A stretch of DNA of 58,544 bases from an uncultured Chthonomonadaceae bacterium (GTDB taxonomy: Bacteria; Armatimonadota; Chthonomonadetes; Chthonomonadales; Chthonomonadaceae). A program made the position numbers and the translations under genes. Below are positions 9,964 through 53,532 of this stretch, piece by piece. Under the pieces are notes generated by a model that did not search any database, was not told where the DNA came from, and saw nothing but the letters and a program-made list of their open reading frames with translations. Where the stretch lies: assembly GCA_963835065.1 (NCBI GenBank), contig CAWIEK010000064.1, positions 1 to 58,544 on the forward strand, in the 5' to 3' direction. How positions within the stretch are numbered: position 1 is the stretch's first letter; each line of letters starts with the position of its first letter.

Positions 9964-10091
9964 GAGGGAAAAGGGAAAAGGGAAAAGGGAAAAGTAGATG
10001 CAATCCTCATCTAATCTGTTTTGATCTTCAACAGGCAAACTAAGGAAGCAAGCGGCATTTACTTTTCCCTTTTCCCTTTTCCCTTTTCCCT
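9964..10091. repeat. Inverted pair of (AGGGAAA)n / (TTTCCCT)n heptamer arrays
   Basis: About 4 units per arm, ending about 10 nt before the Anbu start codon. Confidence 0.85.
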
Positions 10092-12224: not shown

Positions 12225-13289
12225 GTGCCGCCTATCGGTTCTCCCGAACCCATTGCCGCCCTGAATCGCGTCCGCATTACGGAACTCCGCTTGCCCTGGG
12301 AAGCGCGGGAACCTCTGGTGGATATTCGCGCTTACTGTCCCGGCGTGGTTTGTAATGAGGGCATTTGTCCGTACCTGCGAACCGGCGTGGCGGACAAATT
12401 AAACCGGGCGCAGGACTCGCTGCCGCCCGGCTATCGACTTAAAGTAGGCACGGCTTTGCGTACCCTGTCCATGCAGCAGAACGGATGGGACAACTATTTC
12501 AAGCGGATGCAGACCGAACATCCCGATTGGCCGCTTTCCGCGCTGCGCCGCGCCACCAACAAATACCACGCGCCCTACGACCAGAAAGCGCCCCCCGGAC
12601 ACTGCACAGGCGGAGCCGTAGATGTCGGTCTGCTCGACCCGGACAGCAACGCGCTCGATATGGTTGCGCCCACGCAGGGTTGGGAAGCCGTAGACACGTT
12701 TACCAATAAAATTTCTCCCGAAGCCAAAGCCAACCGCATGTTGATGGTGGAAGCTATGCTGGGCGCGGGCTTTTCCAACTGCCGGGACGAGTATTGGCAC
12801 TATTCGTGGGGCGATTCGGCGTGGGCGGTGCGGGTAGGCGAAACCGAGTGTCCGTTCGGCTGGACGTATGCGCCTCCCCTTTTGGAAATTGCCAACGACC
12901 AGAATGACGTTCAAGGCAGCATACAGGAACAAATGCTGGAGACGGTACGCGACTTTCACGGCAAACCGCAAAGCGCAACGGGAACCTGCCGGTGGCCGCA
13001 ATCCGCCCCGCATTTTCAAGCGCGACTGCTCTGGGCAAAGGCCATGCCAGTCACATTGCGAATTGTATTTCACGGCCTCGCGCCCGAAACAACCTTCTTT
13101 ATCGGCAATGGCGACAACGTATGGGAGCCGGTCACAGACATACGCAGGGGTGAGGAAGCGTATGTTCTGCATATTACGCCCGCGTTTGACCGCGCCACGC
13201 TGACAACCCAACTTCCTGAGCCGAAGCCGCCGGAGCCAACGCCGGATGAGTCAGAACCGAGTGAGGCGGCGGTTAGCGCGACGGGCTGA
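12225..13289 (+). CDS. D-Ala-D-Ala dipeptidase (peptidase M15D / VanX-like) with C-terminal extension
   Basis: PPGHCTGGAVD zinc motif and EYWHYSWGD. GTG start 1 nt after the upstream stop. Confidence 0.8.
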   Translation: MPPIGSPEPIAALNRVRITELRLPWEAREPLVDIRAYCPGVVCNEGICPYLRTGVADKLNRAQDSLPPGYRLKVGTALRTLSMQQNGWDNYFKRMQTEHPDWPLSALRRATNKYHAPYDQKAPPGHCTGGAVDVGLLDPDSNALDMVAPTQGWEAVDTFTNKISPEAKANRMLMVEAMLGAGFSNCRDEYWHYSWGDSAWAVRVGETECPFGWTYAPPLLEIANDQNDVQGSIQEQMLETVRDFHGKPQSATGTCRWPQSAPHFQARLLWAKAMPVTLRIVFHGLAPETTFFIGNGDNVWEPVTDIRRGEEAYVLHITPAFDRATLTTQLPEPKPPEPTPDESEPSEAAVSATG

Positions 13290-13422
13290 ACCCCTTCGCT
13301 GTATGGCGTTCCGCCCACTGTCCTTCGGACAGAAATACCCTTCCAAGTAGGTGTTGTGTCCGAAGGACACTGGGCCGCAGTCCACCAAGCGACGGGCTGA
13401 ACCCCTTCGCGCTAACCGCCGC
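13266..13422. repeat. REP/PATE-like palindromic element
   Basis: Perfect 16-bp terminal IR GCGGCGGTTAGCGCGA, direct repeat GCGACGGGCTGAACCCCTTCGC twice, and inner GTCCTTCGGAC / GTCCGAAGGAC hairpins. Confidence 0.8.
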
Positions 13423-21892: not shown

Positions 21893-22825
21893 ATGCGACT
21901 ATTTGGATTGGGCGGAACGCCGGAAGATGAGGCGGTCAAGCAGCGGCGCGAGGCGAGCGAACGCTCCATTGCGCAGGGCGGCTTGCCGCTCAATGCTATT
22001 GACCGCCTGCGCGAACAAAAGGGACGGCAAAATACGCCCGGTCACATCTTCACCAGTGACCTGAGCGTCAACGAATTGACGCTGGTGCATCAGGCGGGGT
22101 ATGAGCCGCTCGGCCAGGTGATGGGCAGCAGCGTGTACCATGTCGGCTGGCAGTGGATGCCGTATTCAAGCTGGAACTCCGGCGAACTGACCACGCTGAC
22201 GCAGGCGTTTTACGAGGCGCGGCATCTGGCGCTTGGACGCTTGTATCAGGAAGCGGCCCTGCTTGGCGCAACCGGGGTCGTCGGCGTCCGACTGGAAAAG
22301 CGCGAGTACGAGTGGGGTTCGTCCCTGCTGGAATTTGCCGCGATTGGCACGGCCATCCGCGAGATAGATGTGCCGCCGCCCCCGGACGGAACCGCGAAAC
22401 CGTTTCTCAGCGATCTGAGCGGCGAAGAGTTCTGGATGCTGCGCCAAACCGGGTTCCGGCCTGTCGGCGTCGCCATCGGCAACTGCACGTACTATCAGGT
22501 TCCCTCGTGGAACACGCAGTTGGCGACAACGGGCGGCTGGCTCAGTGGCGGCTGGAACAATCAGGAATTGCCCGATTACACGCAGGCGTTGTACAACGCC
22601 CGCTCACTCGCCATGAGCCGCATGGAACACGAGGCGCGGCAGTTCAGCGCGGTCGGCATCGTGGGCGCAAACGTGGAAATAGACAGCGAACCCCGCGAAG
22701 TCGAAGTCAACAACAGCCATCGCACCGACATGATTTTCCACTACACCGCCATCGGCACGGCCATTGCCCCCTATACGGGACGCTGGCCGATTTTTAAGGT
22801 GATGAATACTGTTTCGTTGAAGTAG
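21893..22825 (+). CDS. Tandem YbjQ-like (putative heavy-metal-binding) domain protein
   Basis: FTSDLSVNE...PLGQVMGSSVYHVG, ALGRLYQEAALLGATGVVGV and AIGTA, duplicated. Confidence 0.85.
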   Translation: MRLFGLGGTPEDEAVKQRREASERSIAQGGLPLNAIDRLREQKGRQNTPGHIFTSDLSVNELTLVHQAGYEPLGQVMGSSVYHVGWQWMPYSSWNSGELTTLTQAFYEARHLALGRLYQEAALLGATGVVGVRLEKREYEWGSSLLEFAAIGTAIREIDVPPPPDGTAKPFLSDLSGEEFWMLRQTGFRPVGVAIGNCTYYQVPSWNTQLATTGGWLSGGWNNQELPDYTQALYNARSLAMSRMEHEARQFSAVGIVGANVEIDSEPREVEVNNSHRTDMIFHYTAIGTAIAPYTGRWPIFKVMNTVSLK

Positions 22826-22956
22826 TGAGTAGTGAGTAGTCAGTAGTCAGTAGAAATGCCGCTTTACTCCTATCTATGCGCCATAGTACAGTTTACAAGA
22901 ACGGGTTTTCTACTGACTACTCACTACTCACTACTCACTACTTCGGGAGAATTTCC

Positions 22957-23778
22957 ATGCCCTACACACCCGGTTCCGAAGAAGGATTGCCCCAGGCGGC
23001 GCGGCAGCGGCTGGCCGATATGCGCGGCGGCAGTGGCAAGCGCCCGCTGTTTACCAGTGATTTATCGGTCAATGAGTTTTTGCTGGTGCGCGAGGCCGGG
23101 TTCGACCCCGTTGGCCTTGTCATGGGCAGCAGCATATATCACATCGGCTTTCAGTTCGCCAACTTTTTCCAGAATCAGGAAATGACGGTTTTGACGCAGG
23201 CGATGTACCATGCCCGCGAACTGGCAATGACGCGCATGGAGGAAGAAGCCGACATTTTGGGCGCGGACGGCGTGGTAGGCGTCCGTTTGGAAGTAACGCG
23301 CTACGAGTGGGGCGAACATCTGGCGGAATTTATGGCAATCGGCACGGCCATCAAGCACCGCACGGGCGACCATTACCGCACCCACGACAACCGCCCGTTC
23401 ACGTCCGACCTGAACGGACAGGATTTCTGGACCTTGCTGCGGGCGGGCTATCGGCCCGTTTCAATGGTCATGGGAACGTGCGTGTACCATGTGGCGCATC
23501 GGGGCTTGATGCAGTCGCTGCAGCAGGCGGGCCGCAACACGGAAATGCAGAATTACACGCAGGCGCTTTACGATGCCCGCGAATTGTCCCTGTCGCGGAT
23601 GCAGGCCGAAGCCGAGTCGGAAAACGCGGAGGGTATTGTGGGCGCGCAGGTGAAGGAAAGCAGTCACGGATGGGGCAGCCATGTGATCGAATACTTTGCG
23701 GTCGGCACAGCCGTTACGTCCATTTCCGACAAGCATCAGATCGAAACGCCCACGCTGATTTTGCCGTTGACGGGGTAG
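22957..23778 (+). CDS. Tandem YbjQ-like domain protein (paralogue)
   Basis: FTSDLSVNEF...GLVMGSSIYHIG, ARELAMTRMEEEA...GADGVVGV; GGAG RBS. Confidence 0.88.
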   Translation: MPYTPGSEEGLPQAARQRLADMRGGSGKRPLFTSDLSVNEFLLVREAGFDPVGLVMGSSIYHIGFQFANFFQNQEMTVLTQAMYHARELAMTRMEEEADILGADGVVGVRLEVTRYEWGEHLAEFMAIGTAIKHRTGDHYRTHDNRPFTSDLNGQDFWTLLRAGYRPVSMVMGTCVYHVAHRGLMQSLQQAGRNTEMQNYTQALYDARELSLSRMQAEAESENAEGIVGAQVKESSHGWGSHVIEYFAVGTAVTSISDKHQIETPTLILPLTG

Positions 23779-23831
23779 ATAGTTGATAGTTGATAGTTTG
23801 TAGTTGATAGACTCGAAGGGCAACGCTTCTT

Positions 23832-28662: not shown

Positions 28663-31424
28663 TTACTTCAACTGTGTCTTGATGAGGTCTGGTACCGCGT
28701 CGAGGGCGTCCTGCAATTTGCCGGGGTCGCGCCCGCCTGCCTGCGCGAAGTCGGGACGCCCGCCGCCCCCGCCCCCCGCGATTTTCGCCACTTCGCGTAC
28801 CAGATTACCCGCATGAATTCCCCTGCCGTTCAGGTCTTTGGTGACTTTGGCGGTAAAGGCGGCTTTGCCGTCGTTGATTCCGCCGATGACCACAACCGCG
28901 CTGCCCAATTTTTGCGCGGTGCGGTCGGCAAGGTTGGCGATGGTTTCCGCATCGGCGTTGTCCATGCGGTGAATGACGACGGCGATGCCGCCAACGTCCT
29001 GCGGCGTCAGTTCGGTTTGCGCGGACTCGCCGGACTTCAGTTGACGGTTCTGCTTTTCTAGTTCCTGACGTTGCTGCACCAGCCGTTCCGCCGCCGTCAC
29101 TAAGTCATTGGGGTTGGACTTGAGCAGAACTGCCAGTTGCGCCAATTTTTGCTCCTGTTCGCGGAGGTAGTTGTAAACGCCGTTCCCGGTAATCGCTTCA
29201 ATACGCCGAACGCCGGAACTGGCTCCTGTTTCCCGCGTGATTTTGAACAGCCCGACTTCCGACGTATTGCGCAAATGCGTTCCGCCGCACAGTTCCAGAC
29301 TAAAATCAGGAATTTCAACGGTGCGAACGCGATCCCCGTATTTCTCCCCGAACAGCGCCATTGCGCCCCGGCTTCGCGCTTCGTCAATCGGCACATCCGT
29401 TTGGATGCGCACTTCCGTATTTTTCAGAATTTGCGCATTGACAAGCTCTTCCACCTGCCGCAGTTCTTCGGCGGTTAATGGCTGCGAGTGCGTAAAGTCG
29501 AAACGCAAGCCCGCCGCGTTGACAAGCGAGCCTTTCTGATGCACATGCCCGCCCAAGACTTGCCGCAAAGCCGCTTGCAGCAGGTGCGTGGCGGTATGGT
29601 TGCGCTCCGTGTCCCGGCGGCGTGAATTGTCAACCGTTGCTTGAACCGTTTGGCCAACTGCAACTTCGCCTTCCAGCACTTTGCCCGTATGAAGATAGAC
29701 TGCCGATCGGGTTCTTTTTGGTGTCGGTGATTTCGATTTTTAGCGCACAGGTAACATTTCCTGCGGGAGCCGTCAAGTAACCAGTATCACCTACCTGCCC
29801 GCCCGCCTCAGCGTAGAAACGGAGTTGGATCTAGAAGAGATTGAATACTTCCTCACCGGCTTGCGGCACTTGATTGCCCGCTTCGCTGTAAGCACAGGCG
29901 TAATCGCCACCACCTTTACAGGCACAGAAACTTCGGCCTGATCGTAGCCGACAAACTGAGTTGGGGAAATGCGCCTGTTCAGTTCGGTAAATTGCCAGAC
30001 ATCTCGCTTTCAAGACTAATGCTCAACCAGTGGGTGCCGAACACGTTCTTTCGAAATGTTGCTGCCTGCCCGTGAACGGCTGCGTTGATCTTCCAGCGCT
30101 TTGCCGTAGCCTTCCGTGTCTACGGTGACGCCGTGTTCGCGGGCCAGTTCTTCGGTGAGTTGGAAGGGGAAGCCATACGTGTCGTAAAGCATGAAAGCGT
30201 CCGCGCCGGGGAGTACGCGCGTTTCCTGCACCGTGCCCGCTTCGAGCATCTGGTTCAGCAGGCGGATGCCGTTGTCGAGCGTGCGGCGGAAGCGCTTTTC
30301 CTCGTCCTGAATGGCGTTGAGAATCAGTTCGCGCCGTTCCTTCAGTTCCGAATAAAAGCCGCCCATTTGCTCAATGATGATCGGCGCGACGAGATGCAGA
30401 AACGGCTCTTCAAAGCCCAGTACCGTTTTGCCGTAGCGGATGGCGCGGCGCATCAGGTAGCGCAGCACGTAATCGCGCCCCTCATTGCCCGGCTGTATCC
30501 CGTCCGCAATGCAGAACACCATCGAGCGCGTATGCTCGGCCACAACCCGGAACGCGAAATCCGTTGGCGACGCGCTGCTCGTGTAGGTTTTGCCGGAAAT
30601 TGCTCGATTGCCTGCAAAATGGGGCCGAACAGATCGGTTTCAAACACAGACGTTTTGCCCTGCGATACATACGCGACGCGATCCAGGCCGCCGCCCGTAT
30701 CATTGTTTTTGCGCGGCAGGGGCGTCAGAACGGGCTTGCCGTTTTCGTCCTCGCCCCGGTCAAACTGCGTGAAAACGTTGTTCCAGATTTCCGTACATCG
30801 TCCCGCCTCGTCGTCAATCAGGTAGCGATCCGTCGGAGAAAGCGCCGGATCACTCGTCATTTCCTCGACGGGAACCACGCGATAGAAAATCTCCGAACAG
30901 GGGCCGCACGGTCCGTTCGGGCCTTCCGAAATGGCTTTTGCGGGCCAGTAGTTTTTGTCTTCGCCAAGCCGGTGAATACGGTCATCCGGCAGGCCGATAA
31001 CGTCATGCCACAAACGGTACGCCTCGTCGTCATCAATATAAACGGTCACGCACAGCCGTTCCGCATCCAGCCCGACGACCTGAGTAAGAAACTCCCACGT
31101 CCAGGGAATCACTTCGGCCTTGAAGTAATCGCCGAAACTAAAGTTGCCGAGCATTTCAAAAAACGTGCAGTGCGAAAAGTCGCCCACCTCGTCAATGTCC
31201 TTGACGCGCAGGCATTTTTGCACAGTTGTCACGCGGGTTCGCGGCGGCGTGGCCGCGCCCGTAAAATAGGGCTTGAACTGCTGCATCCCCGACCCCGTAA
31301 ACAGAGTCGAGTTGTCGGCATTGCCCAGCGCGTCTACGGGAATCAGGGACGCGGAAGGCAATTGTAAATGCCCGCGTTCTTTGAAAAATTCGAGGTACTT
31401 TTGACGTATTTCATGCGCCTGCAT
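28663..31424 (-). CDS. alaS: Alanine--tRNA ligase (several frameshifts, probably assembly errors)
   Basis: GMQQFKPYF, TFFEMLGNFSFGDYFK, GPCGPCSEI, LYDTYGFP, NHTATHLL, ALFGEKYG, ELCGGTH and GGGRPDFAQAGG spread over at least 4 frames. Confidence 0.97.
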
Positions 31425-31561
31425 AATCGCTTGTCGCTCCAATAGGGATTCAGCGCCACATATAAGTTTTGAGAGTGGTGTCTGTGCTTGCTTTGACAGT
31501 AAAACCGCTGCTATAGTATACAGCAAAACCGCCTGCGGTAACGTCGTCGGGGATAGTAGGG

Positions 31562-32022
31562 CAGGGTTGGCGCATCTAAACGGAAAAAAAGAGTATGTAG
31601 AGACAGCGTCGAAATCTTGGCAATGCAGCGCTTCCAGCCCAGTGTCTCGTTGTGTCAAGTTGTAATAAGAAGAGGCGTCGTGACCTCAGCAGCGTCAGGG
31701 CGAACGGGGAGAGTATACAGGCATCTTCCAGCACCTCCCTTCCAGGTTAGATGTTGAGAGTTCTTGTTCCTTGTTGCGAGGAACTCGGAACTTTCAACGT
31801 CCCGCCACCTGGCTGATTAGCCATCTAGTTAGTAGACGTGTGTATACTTAGACGAGGCAGATGCAGGGAAGGTTCGTTATTTCTGCTATTTAGGCAGAAA
31901 TGTTTCTACTTTTTTGCGCGTTCTTTTTGGATTGGGCAACCCGGAGGCGGGAGCAGGCGCATTACAGGGGCGAATGACCTACAGCGGGATACGTGTTGAG
32001 CATTTTAGATGCGCCAGCCCTG
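31562..32022 (+). mobile_element. Non-autonomous ISAs1-type element (internal deletion derivative)
   Basis: 19-bp TIRs CAGGG(T/C)TGGCGCATCTAAA at 31562-31580 and 32004-32022; exact 10-bp direct repeat GATAGTAGGG at 31552-31561 and 32023-32032; right end reads VLSILDAPAL, like ISAs1 transposase C-termini. Confidence 0.85.
31589..31901 (+). ncRNA. Putative structured ncRNA / mobile non-coding element, copy 1
   Basis: High similarity to 53311-53532, several stems with compensatory or G-U changes, an extra long hairpin, and a terminal ATTTCTGC/GCAGAAAT hairpin followed by a T-rich run. Strand is inferred. Confidence 0.6.
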
Positions 32023-32075
32023 GATAGTAGGGATACAAACACGCTTTGATAGAGGAAGAATAGGAGGAGGCGGAA

Positions 32076-32627
32076 ATGATTGCAAACCTACGCGCCACTT
32101 TGCAGGACTTGTATGCCGTGCCGGAAAACGGCAAAGCTGAACTTGTAGACGGAGAATTGCAGATCATGTGTCCAACAGGTATCATTCCGGGGCGGGCATC
32201 CATGAAAATCGCTTCCAGCCTGATGCGCCATGAAGAAGAAGTGGGCGGTGGTTACGCCATCCCGGATAATGTTGGCTTTGTGGTACATCTGCCCAACCGC
32301 GAGTCGTTCAGCCCGGACGCGGCGTGGTATGTGGGCGACATCAACAGCATGAAGTTTGCCCAGGCCGCGCCCCGCTTTGCTGTCGAAGTGCGCAGCGAAA
32401 ACGACTATGGCCCGGCAGCGGAACTGGCGATTACGCAGAAGATACGCGACTACTTTGCGGCGGGAACGCTGGTGGTGTGGGACGCCGACCTGCAAGGCGA
32501 GGACGTGATCAAGAAGTACAGCACAGGACAGCCGGACACGCCCATCCTCTACAAGCGCGGCGACATAGCCGATGCCGAGCCTGCCGTTGCCGGATGGCGC
32601 TTTCCCGTTGACAACCTCTTCCGGTAA
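32076..32627 (+). CDS. Uma2 family endonuclease
   Basis: KAELVDG, FSPDAAW, PRFAVEVRS and DYFAAGTLVVW; GGAGG RBS. Confidence 0.92.
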   Translation: MIANLRATLQDLYAVPENGKAELVDGELQIMCPTGIIPGRASMKIASSLMRHEEEVGGGYAIPDNVGFVVHLPNRESFSPDAAWYVGDINSMKFAQAAPRFAVEVRSENDYGPAAELAITQKIRDYFAAGTLVVWDADLQGEDVIKKYSTGQPDTPILYKRGDIADAEPAVAGWRFPVDNLFR

Positions 32628-37233: not shown

Positions 37234-37379
37234 GCCATTCGTTTGGGAAGGTTTCAGGTGTCAGGTGTCAGGTGTCAGGGGCAATGCTGCTGTTATGCGT
37301 AATATAGCACAAAGCAGTACGCTTTTCCTGACACCTGACACCTGACACCTGAAACCTTCCTCTCTGGTATACTACTGCC

Positions 37380-48768: not shown

Positions 48769-48795
48769 ACTCCTTAACATCTTGTACCCATTGGC

Positions 48796-48936
48796 GCGAC
48801 GCACTGAAGTGCTTCGCTGTCAGGGCGTACCGCCGTTCGTCCACGCAAGTGGACGAGTCCTGCTATACTTTGGCGTTCGTCGGCGAAGGCTGACGAACAG
48901 CCGCAGGCTCTAAAGCGAAGCACTTCAGTGCGTCGC
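48796..48936. repeat. REP/PATE-like palindromic element
   Basis: Perfect 23-bp terminal IR GCGACGCACTGAAGTGCTTCGCT; inner hairpins CGTCCACGCAAGTGGACG and CGTCGGCGAAGGCTGACG. Confidence 0.85.
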
Positions 48937-48961
48937 CACAACACCAACATGAAAGCGGCTT

Positions 48962-50485: not shown

Positions 50486-50641
50486 TGTTACTTTGGGAGT
50501 GACCTTGCTCCGCAAGTGGGGATGCTGAACCATGATTTTTATGATTTTTGTGATTACCATGATGAGCCATGCCATGATTAGTTGCTCAAAGTCATGGTTC
50601 AGCATCCCAACCGGCGGAGCAAGGTCACTCCAAAAGTAACA
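50486..50641. repeat. Long inverted-repeat element (MITE-like)
   Basis: About 55-bp imperfect arms TGTTACTTT(G/T)GGAGTGACCTTGCTCCGC...GGGATGCTGAACCATGA enclosing ATGATT-type short repeats. Confidence 0.8.
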
Positions 50642-53096: not shown

Positions 53097-53310
53097 CTCG
53101 CATCCTGCTGTCCTTCCGACAAGAATACATCTATTATAGCGTACATTCGCGGCAAAGGTCTGAACCGAAGAGCGCGAGTGAAACATCCTGCCAAGACCGC
53201 GGTTCTGCACATAGTGCCCGTAAATTTATCGCACCCGAACTAGTGGGAACGCCGACCTTTGCCAACGGGAAGTGATGCAAGCAAAGGATGAGGGATAAGA
53301 GATAAGAGAT

Positions 53311-53532
53311 AAGAGTATGTAGAGGCAGCGTCGAAATCTTGGCAATGCAGCGCTTCCAGCCCGATGTCTCGTTGTGTCAAGTTGTAGAAGAGAGGCGTCG
53401 TGGCCTCGTGAGCGTCAGGGCGAACGGGAGGGGTGAAACATAGGACTGCACCTCCCTTCCTGTGGGTATAACGCCTGAACGGTAGACGTATGTGTATGTT
53501 TAGACAGGGTGAGTGAGGCAAAGGTTTCGTTT
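53311..53532 (+). ncRNA. Putative structured ncRNA / mobile non-coding element, copy 2
   Basis: Shares the left boundary AAGAGTATGTAGAG and about 120 nt of near-identity with copy 1; lacks copy 1's long hairpin; begins within a (GATAAGA)n array. Confidence 0.6.

Follow-up and report, generated by a model that had tools for sequence, protein, structure and literature searches.

An ISAs1-type miniature element upstream of alaS carries a repeated and constrained promoter-minigene-RNA cassette

The window analysed here, a contig of 58,544 nt, contains a 461-bp element (31562-32022) between the minus-strand alaS gene (TIGR00344) and a plus-strand ORF of 183 aa at 32076, for which no NCBIfam match was found and to which the original prediction had attached the label Uma2. 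As that prediction had it, the element is bounded by 19-bp TIRs with one differing base and flanked by an exact 10-bp duplication; the 10-mer occurs exactly twice in the window (Table 1). We compared the genome of the window (G000) with two relatives, G001 and the congeneric G002. The latter carries alaS and the neighbour gene in the same order without the insert, and the 10-mer is not conserved there; G001 likewise has no insert at alaS, but its neighbour gene differs. Taken together, the duplication, the TIRs and the empty site in G002 therefore identify a true insertion. No clean empty site was found among the sequencing-run contigs matched to the locus. In one relative (run X3, record 17), 670 other letters separate alaS from the next gene, which may mark the space between these genes as a hotspot for insertions. 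The alaS gene of the window (28663-31421) is broken into three or more ORFs, with the TIGR00344 match covering positions 1-247 of the 847 in the profile, probably owing to assembly frameshifts.

Table 1. Features of the element at alaS and of the second cassette copy in the window
Feature	Position	Strand	Remark
Target-site duplication, left copy	31552-31561	.	10-mer repeat
ISAs1-type TIR	31562-31580	.	bases just inside are similar to the ISAs1 end that follows the transposase; similarity of the interior beyond the TIR not significant
Pyrimidine-rich 3' tail	31584-31597	-	follows a nearly invariant 4-mer
Conserved RNA domain	31600-31648	-	closing helix pairs 31643-31648 with 31600-31605
Near-invariant loop	31618-31633	-	holds self-complementary hexamer 31627-31632
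5-bp hairpin	31672-31687	-	starts 7 nt past the stop codon; in this copy, terminator-like by consensus scan only
Minigene MPVYSPRSP-stop	31695-31724	-	ORF
Shine-Dalgarno motif	31734-31738	-	motif
Optional long leader hairpin	31742-31812	-	many copies lack it or have another one; heptamer repeats often form its tip
Second -10-like motif	31832-31837	-	copy of the -10
Predicted ECF-type promoter	31848-31875	-	-35 at 31870-31875, 16-nt spacer, -10 at 31848-31853
A-tract region upstream of -35	31876-31930	-	possibly UP-element-like
Subterminal region common to ISAs1-type composites	31931-32003	.	no significant similarity to the ISAs1 interior of G002
ISAs1-type TIR	32004-32022	.	agrees at 20 of 21 bases with the ISAs1 end that precedes the transposase
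Target-site duplication, right copy	32023-32032	.	10-mer repeat
Decayed ISAzo13-type MITE end beside second copy	53214-53273	.	by eye
Second cassette copy, without ISAs1 ends	53316-53528	-	same hairpin and core
Second copy, minigene MFHPSRSP-stop	53415-53441	-	ORF
Second copy, Shine-Dalgarno	53451-53455	-	motif
Second copy, promoter	53500-53528	-	motif

Consistent with the original assignment to the ISAs1 type, the same TIR bounds elements encoding an ISAs1 transposase in G002, where four ISAs1 loci were found (transposase profile NF033564, 402 bits). Positions 31562-32022 are a non-autonomous ISAs1-type MITE, inserted here as one unit; they contain neither a transposase gene nor a remnant of one, as an autonomous ISAs1 would. 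Two HMMs detected no ISAs1 transposase in G000 (91.9% complete, 71 contigs), in which a short ISAs1 remnant (GIPSHDTF) lies behind a related TIR on contig C48. The peptide VLSILDAPAL, previously read as a transposase C-terminus at the right end, has another origin: LDAPAL is the TIR read outward, the transposase of full ISAs1 elements stops ahead of the TIR with LEQILLS or LEQVLVS, and the end at 32022 corresponds to the ISAs1 end upstream, not downstream, of the transposase. Two ISAs1-type ends were found at 15 of the 162 copies of the inner repeat in G000, and any fuzzy match to an ISAs1 end at 33, part of which are spurious. Duplications of 8-10 bp are typical of the ISAs1 family. Among the two-ended copies, five have an exact 10-bp duplication, three have one with a single mismatch and one has three mismatches; the remainder comprises one copy with a 9-bp duplication containing one mismatch and five with none. 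The MITE shell is thus ordinary. By eye, the full ISAs1 copies L021, L022 and L028 of G002 show no target duplication, unlike most of the MITEs described here.

That the interior is repeated, as originally noted, was borne out: G000 contains 162 copies, and a second one is found in the window at 53308-53461. Thirteen copies are present in G001, and the model gave 48 hits in G002, two of them weak or partial. In a profile search (nhmmer), all 162 copies matched with E ≤ 1.2e-38 and the next match had an E-value of 0.45, indicating that the copies are almost all complete; with sub-profiles, we detected no stray pieces of the Shine-Dalgarno-ORF unit or of the core, and three stray promoter pieces. 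An ISAzo13-type MITE end is present on the same side in about 31 of the 162 copies, and some copies (for example, L199) are flanked by such ends on both sides. The corresponding MITE family measures 80-93 bp, and its parent of 1363 bp encodes an ISAzo13 transposase. Instead of the non-coding RNA alone that had been proposed, the cargo is, as far as its sequence tells, an undescribed and strongly constrained cassette on two IS families, composed of a minus-strand promoter, a minigene and an RNA domain. Overall, the original interpretation is partly supported, and on the cargo it was mostly wrong.

The cassette has a narrow taxonomic distribution. A scan of a genome collection yielded at least 33 matches, among which those listed comprise 31 Chthonomonadaceae MAG records and two unrelated sequences. 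No cassette was found in viral contigs or in phage and plasmid records, by DNA search in 38 other relatives, or with the RNA model in 39 other genomes of the family and a sample of 150 genomes of the phylum; 16 pattern matches in metagenomes turned out to be unrelated when read. Searches of Rfam returned no match at the gathering threshold and nothing meaningful at E ≤ 10, and no description of this repeat was found in the literature searched, in which subscription papers are thinly covered. In the sets searched, the cassette was found only within the genus and would thus appear to be genus-restricted.

Other repeats and loci of these genomes are worth recording. Two 1363-bp ISAzo13 elements are present in G000 (C53:451923-453285 and C41:162052-163414), together with 80 end matches, and some of the 80-93-bp MITEs with ISAzo13 TIRs enclose REP-like hairpins. 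The window contains inverted arrays of heptamer repeats (9965-10091, 22819-22944, 37246-37360 and 23772-23811), with similar heptamers at the tip of the cassette leader hairpin, and other long inverted-repeat elements (13266-13422, 48791-48941 and 50486-50641), which probably represent further MITE or REP families. Labelled by eye, a reverse transcriptase is located beside Cas1/Cas2-like genes and an array in G000 (L108; C49:680160-683777), and each of the three genomes has a second, retron-like one that follows a SWIM/BRCT-like gene (L109-L111). One copy of the 162 lies beside a CRISPR array (C63:58335-60300), between the array and the end of a Cas6-like ORF (by eye), and is transcribed in the direction leading away from the array.

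The predicted promoter of the cassette combines an AAC-type -35 and a CGTC-type -10 at fixed spacing, as in ECF promoters. It is present in 145 of the 162 copies, with a spacer of 16-17 nt in 141 of the 145, and the distance from the -10 to the Shine-Dalgarno motif varies from 20 to 180 nt. The strict motif was found 87 times at spacer 16 and 4-13 times at other spacers; cassettes account for 80 of the 87. The promoter resembles Bacillus subtilis ECF promoters, for which we used the consensus in the available portion of PMC5758882. G000 has 67 sigma-70/ECF matches; at the 54 sigma genes scored, we found no convincing copy of the cassette promoter, the best scoring 12.1 versus 20-26 for cassettes. 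High-scoring copies are located at a few host genes (G000 C5:8121, C46:44631, C56:47240 and C41:170487) and possibly represent a small native regulon. Some copies in G001 and in the congeneric set have other upstream regions, and promoter halves are swapped between subfamilies. In five G001 copies (L006, L009, L012, L015 and L018), a longer and different leader carries, in place of the ECF promoter, a motif resembling an NrdR box.

Downstream lies a minigene of 8-11 codons in G000 (8-16 in the family), which is in frame from ATG to stop in 155 of the 162 copies, out of frame in five and without an ATG in two; with rare exceptions, indels within it are triplets. Its last codon encodes proline in 202 of 204 copies (CCC 156, CCT 27, CCG 15 and CCA 4), the third-last encodes arginine in 192, using four CGN codons, and the stop codon is TGA in 170, TAA in 33 and TAG in one. 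In a divergent G001 subfamily of seven copies, the minigene encodes M-x-x-L-(L/I)-(P/T)-L-P-P-stop; its codons show synonymous changes, and the promoter and Shine-Dalgarno motif are retained. Pro-Pro-stop terminates 12 of 13 copies in G001, 35 of 162 in G000 and 6 of 37 in the congeneric set, and is found at the end of 6 of 6679 predicted host genes. Ser-Pro-stop is found in 115 of the 162 G000 copies, including the one at alaS, and in 22 of the 37. One G001 copy (L012) consists of a Shine-Dalgarno motif followed by GTG, two proline codons and TGA, a minimal M-P-P-stop minigene. As a constraint on sequence, this pattern shows that the minigene is under apparent peptide-level selection for R/H/L-x-Pro-stop.

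The 3' part of the cassette contains a near-invariant 65-nt domain, in which 24 of 33 central sites do not vary among 158 copies. In the closing helix, three of six pairs have changed on both sides; when both helices are considered and divergent copies included, this applies to 4 of 11 pairs, and 93.6% of cells are paired versus 44-59% in slid controls, the helix structure having been derived from the same sequences as the pair counts. The covariation comes mostly from the divergent subfamily of seven rows, which represents few independent events, and without it no pair is changed on both sides. The fold of the whole element has z = -5.45 on the plus and -2.37 on the minus strand, with the pairing of the TIRs included. 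The structured RNA originally proposed as cargo is therefore only partly borne out: two helices covary, but the predicted minus-strand transcript is no more stable than shuffles (z = 0.04). The U-tract following the hairpin is not conserved. A coding function of the 65-nt core was rejected, since no frame has a clear excess of synonymous variants (11 of 33-35 in the best one versus 21% expected) and stops are present. Mimicry of tmRNA or tRNA was unconvincing, the ARAGORN assignments being inconsistent among the matches listed and obtained at a relaxed threshold only.

How the copies stay alike bears on the interpretation. Among 19 ISAs1-type copies, the core has two private changes in 60 nt versus 12-24 per 20 nt on the TIR side. 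In the congeneric set, 7 of 28 testable loci are no more than 1.2 kb from the position of a G000 copy, as are 4 of 10 loci in G001, with about 7% expected; at least four of the position-sharing congeneric loci are inside one collinear alignment with the flank, and one G001 case is on the wrong side. In similarity, three orthologous partners rank 2-9 among the 162 and three rank 98-124. All four combinations were found in 228 of 276 site pairs, with a mean r2 of 0.014 already at 4-10 nt, that is, near linkage equilibrium, and copy homogenisation may therefore contribute to the conservation. From the shared positions, the low-ranked partners and the linkage equilibrium, it follows that old insertions persist and that, in addition, sequence passes between copies or tolerated sites mutate repeatedly. 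The conservation may reflect selection, homogenisation or both.

The original prediction offered two explanations, namely that ISAs1 elements carry a 5' non-coding RNA or that a second mobile element targets ISAs1 ends. In their favour, ISAs1-type TIRs bound the 15 composites, and the cassette very often adjoins some transposon end. However, the four ISAs1 loci of G002 have only the TIR in common with the element (blastn and nhmmer), and since these full copies lack the inner repeat, the idea of a 5' non-coding RNA fails. Targeting of ISAs1 ends is largely unsupported: the majority of copies have no such ends, about 31 have the ISAzo13-type end instead, and the 15 composites have a common internal arrangement and were mobilised whole, so that a single capture suffices. 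Both readings are largely refuted and, taken together, highly improbable. The linkage equilibrium and the species-specific homogenisation would fit an ordinary MITE family in which gene conversion keeps a functionless interior, such as the remains of an old ISAs1 3' end, uniform. A weak similarity between the core and the ISAs1 3' end in matching register points in the same direction (p = 0.05-0.59 for the window copy; p ≤ 0.05 in 6 of 30 related rows), but controls gave similar values (0.06-0.10) and we rejected the core as such an end. Conversion alone would produce neither synonymous codon use nor triplet indels, fixed promoter spacing and compensatory pairs; furthermore, the TIR-side regions and the duplications decay and the core does not. 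We regard a functionless interior as very unlikely.

Two further explanations grant the cassette a function. It may act in cis as the RNA of a selfish element that a reverse transcriptase or recombinase copies in trans; the minigene would then stabilise the RNA by parking a ribosome on it, the palindromic loop would allow RNAs to pair and recombine, and the MITE ends would be secondary captures. The near completeness of the copies, the invariant loop with its self-complementary hexamer in all three genomes, the low r2 at short distance, the swapped promoter halves and the three orthologous copies that are closer to copies of their own species than to their partners are all consistent with such a process. 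Nevertheless, a search for an autonomous parent revealed no long repeated flanks and no protein enriched among 316 neighbours, and no mobility gene recurs beside the copies; among the loci fetched from the three genomes (4 reverse transcriptases, 1 IS110, 15 Y1, 20 of 25 TnpB matches and ISAs1), the sole profile match was an already known copy 1.5 kb from one TnpB. Moreover, the ISAs1-type class moved by DDE transposition, as its 10-bp duplications show, and trans-copying appears unlikely. Alternatively, the cassette could be a portable regulatory leader, akin to Neisseria REP2 or to a leader-peptide attenuator, in which a ribosome at the Pro-stop would cover the hairpin and permit read-through into whichever host gene follows; at this locus that gene is alaS, which would come under ECF control. 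The window copy is directed toward alaS, its hairpin close behind the stop codon scores as terminator-like, and some insertions are kept between species. Precedents exist both for a repeat with promoter, ribosome-binding site and ATG, as available passages on REP2 describe (PMC3184786), and for x-S/A-P-stop arrest peptides (the accessible part of PMC10987492). Yet 99 of 161 copies have their 3' neighbour on the other strand and 62 have it on their own (by a simple gene caller), the neighbours have no function in common, the U-tract is variable and alaS of G002 has no insert, which makes a regulatory leader quite unlikely.

The explanation that we prefer, tentatively as a whole, joins the MITE shell and the constrained cassette to a stress-induced, ribosome-stalling RNA. 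When the cognate ECF sigma factor is switched on, the copies would yield an RNA of about 200-300 nt, on which ribosomes would initiate and then stall at the Pro-stop; such stalling, as in Pseudomonas CreT, could tie up ribosomes and tRNA-Pro and slow growth under stress, and the 3' helices might protect the RNA or bind a regulator. Pro-Pro-stop would probably be the ancestral and stronger form, and Ser-Pro-stop, which dominates in the high-copy genomes, a probably weakened one that could be amplified by MITE hitchhiking. The three genomes give a hint of such a trend toward weaker minigenes where amplification is greatest. In its boldest form, this account would make the cassette a CRISPR-independent, ECF-induced proline-stop RNA toxin or ribosome trap, a selfish passenger of the ends of two unrelated IS families that exchanges sequence through a kissing loop in its RNA domain and shifts from Pro-Pro to Ser-Pro as copies rise from 13 to 162; we consider this combination somewhat unlikely.

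MITE interiors are usually regarded as decaying filler, whereas here the interior outlasts the transposon ends and is constrained at the level of codons, promoter and base pairs in more than 200 copies from three genomes. Should the cassette stall ribosomes, the recently described proline-codon RNA toxins would reach beyond CRISPR loci, some 60 naturally occurring versions of a minimal x-Pro-stop peptide would be at hand for tests of stalling at termination, and a route would exist by which a single stress sigma factor comes to control a small-RNA gene at very high dosage.

Among known systems, the ISAs1 family and its MITEs share with the element the TIR of the G002 copies and the 10-bp duplications; in contrast to full ISAs1, the element has no transposase and an interior unrelated beyond the TIR, and the same cargo is found on ISAzo13-type ends. 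Mobile elements also have RNAs of their own, such as the omega-RNA of TnpB and IscB, the bridge RNA of IS110 and the msr-msd of retrons. The cassette shares with stand-alone guide or scaffold RNAs a conserved RNA scaffold that is present in many copies and is not accompanied by a protein gene, but no match to it was found in the fetched TnpB, Y1, IS110 and reverse transcriptase loci or in Rfam. Like Neisseria REP2 and Borrelia IR-A, it is a dispersed repeat with promoter, ribosome-binding site, ATG and stem-loops; REP2, as far as the available text describes it, has no TIRs, lies upstream of co-regulated genes and supplies their start (PMC3184786), whereas the cassette ORF closes after about nine codons and most copies face a gene on the opposite strand. 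The R/H-x-P and S/A-P-stop C-termini recall RAPP-like, NSP-stop/NAP-stop and TnaC arrest peptides, and 203 of 204 cassette stops (TGA or TAA) are readable by RF2. In the accessible parts of PMC10987492 and PMC11890864, arrest peptides are encoded by longer uORFs tied to one downstream operon, and stalling at most RAPP-like motifs depends on a suitable N-terminal part; growth is inhibited when arrest peptides are overexpressed (PMC11890864, same parts).

The closest counterpart is CreT. In Pseudomonas aeruginosa, it comprises a Shine-Dalgarno motif, a mini-ORF ending in Pro-Pro-stop and a hairpin, and is bacteriostatic, according to the available portion of bioRxiv 10.64898/2026.06.02.729485; Acinetobacter CreT likewise uses a Shine-Dalgarno motif, a start codon and a hairpin (PMC10097628, available portion). 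The cassette likewise has a Shine-Dalgarno motif, a mini-ORF and a downstream hairpin. However, P. aeruginosa CreT, as described in the portion cited, is a single copy in cas loci with a canonical -10/-35 promoter repressed by CreA-Cas and an ORF of 15 nt, whereas the cassette is dispersed in 13-162 copies per genome, has an ECF-type promoter and an ORF of 8-16 codons, and ends mostly in Ser-Pro-stop in the high-copy genomes. Furthermore, CreT needs no more than a hairpin, and the toxin reading leaves the additional 65-nt invariant domain unexplained. Among 103 post-repeat sequences, we found no CreA-like antitoxin guide (one match of 11 nt to the cassette versus 0.72 in shuffled sequences and none of 12 nt versus 0.12; very degenerate repeats could escape), and the same comparison at 9 nt gave 18 matches versus 9.5. 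Because no association with cas genes and no CreA were found, the cassette is not a CreT by membership. CreT requires two consecutive prolines, for which any two proline codons serve, and its shortened version is still toxic (bioRxiv 10.64898/2026.06.02.729485, same portion); the window copy does not conform to this rule, but 35 of 162, 6 of 37 and 12 of 13 copies in the three sets do, and the shortened toxic CreT resembles the M-P-P-stop minigene of L012.
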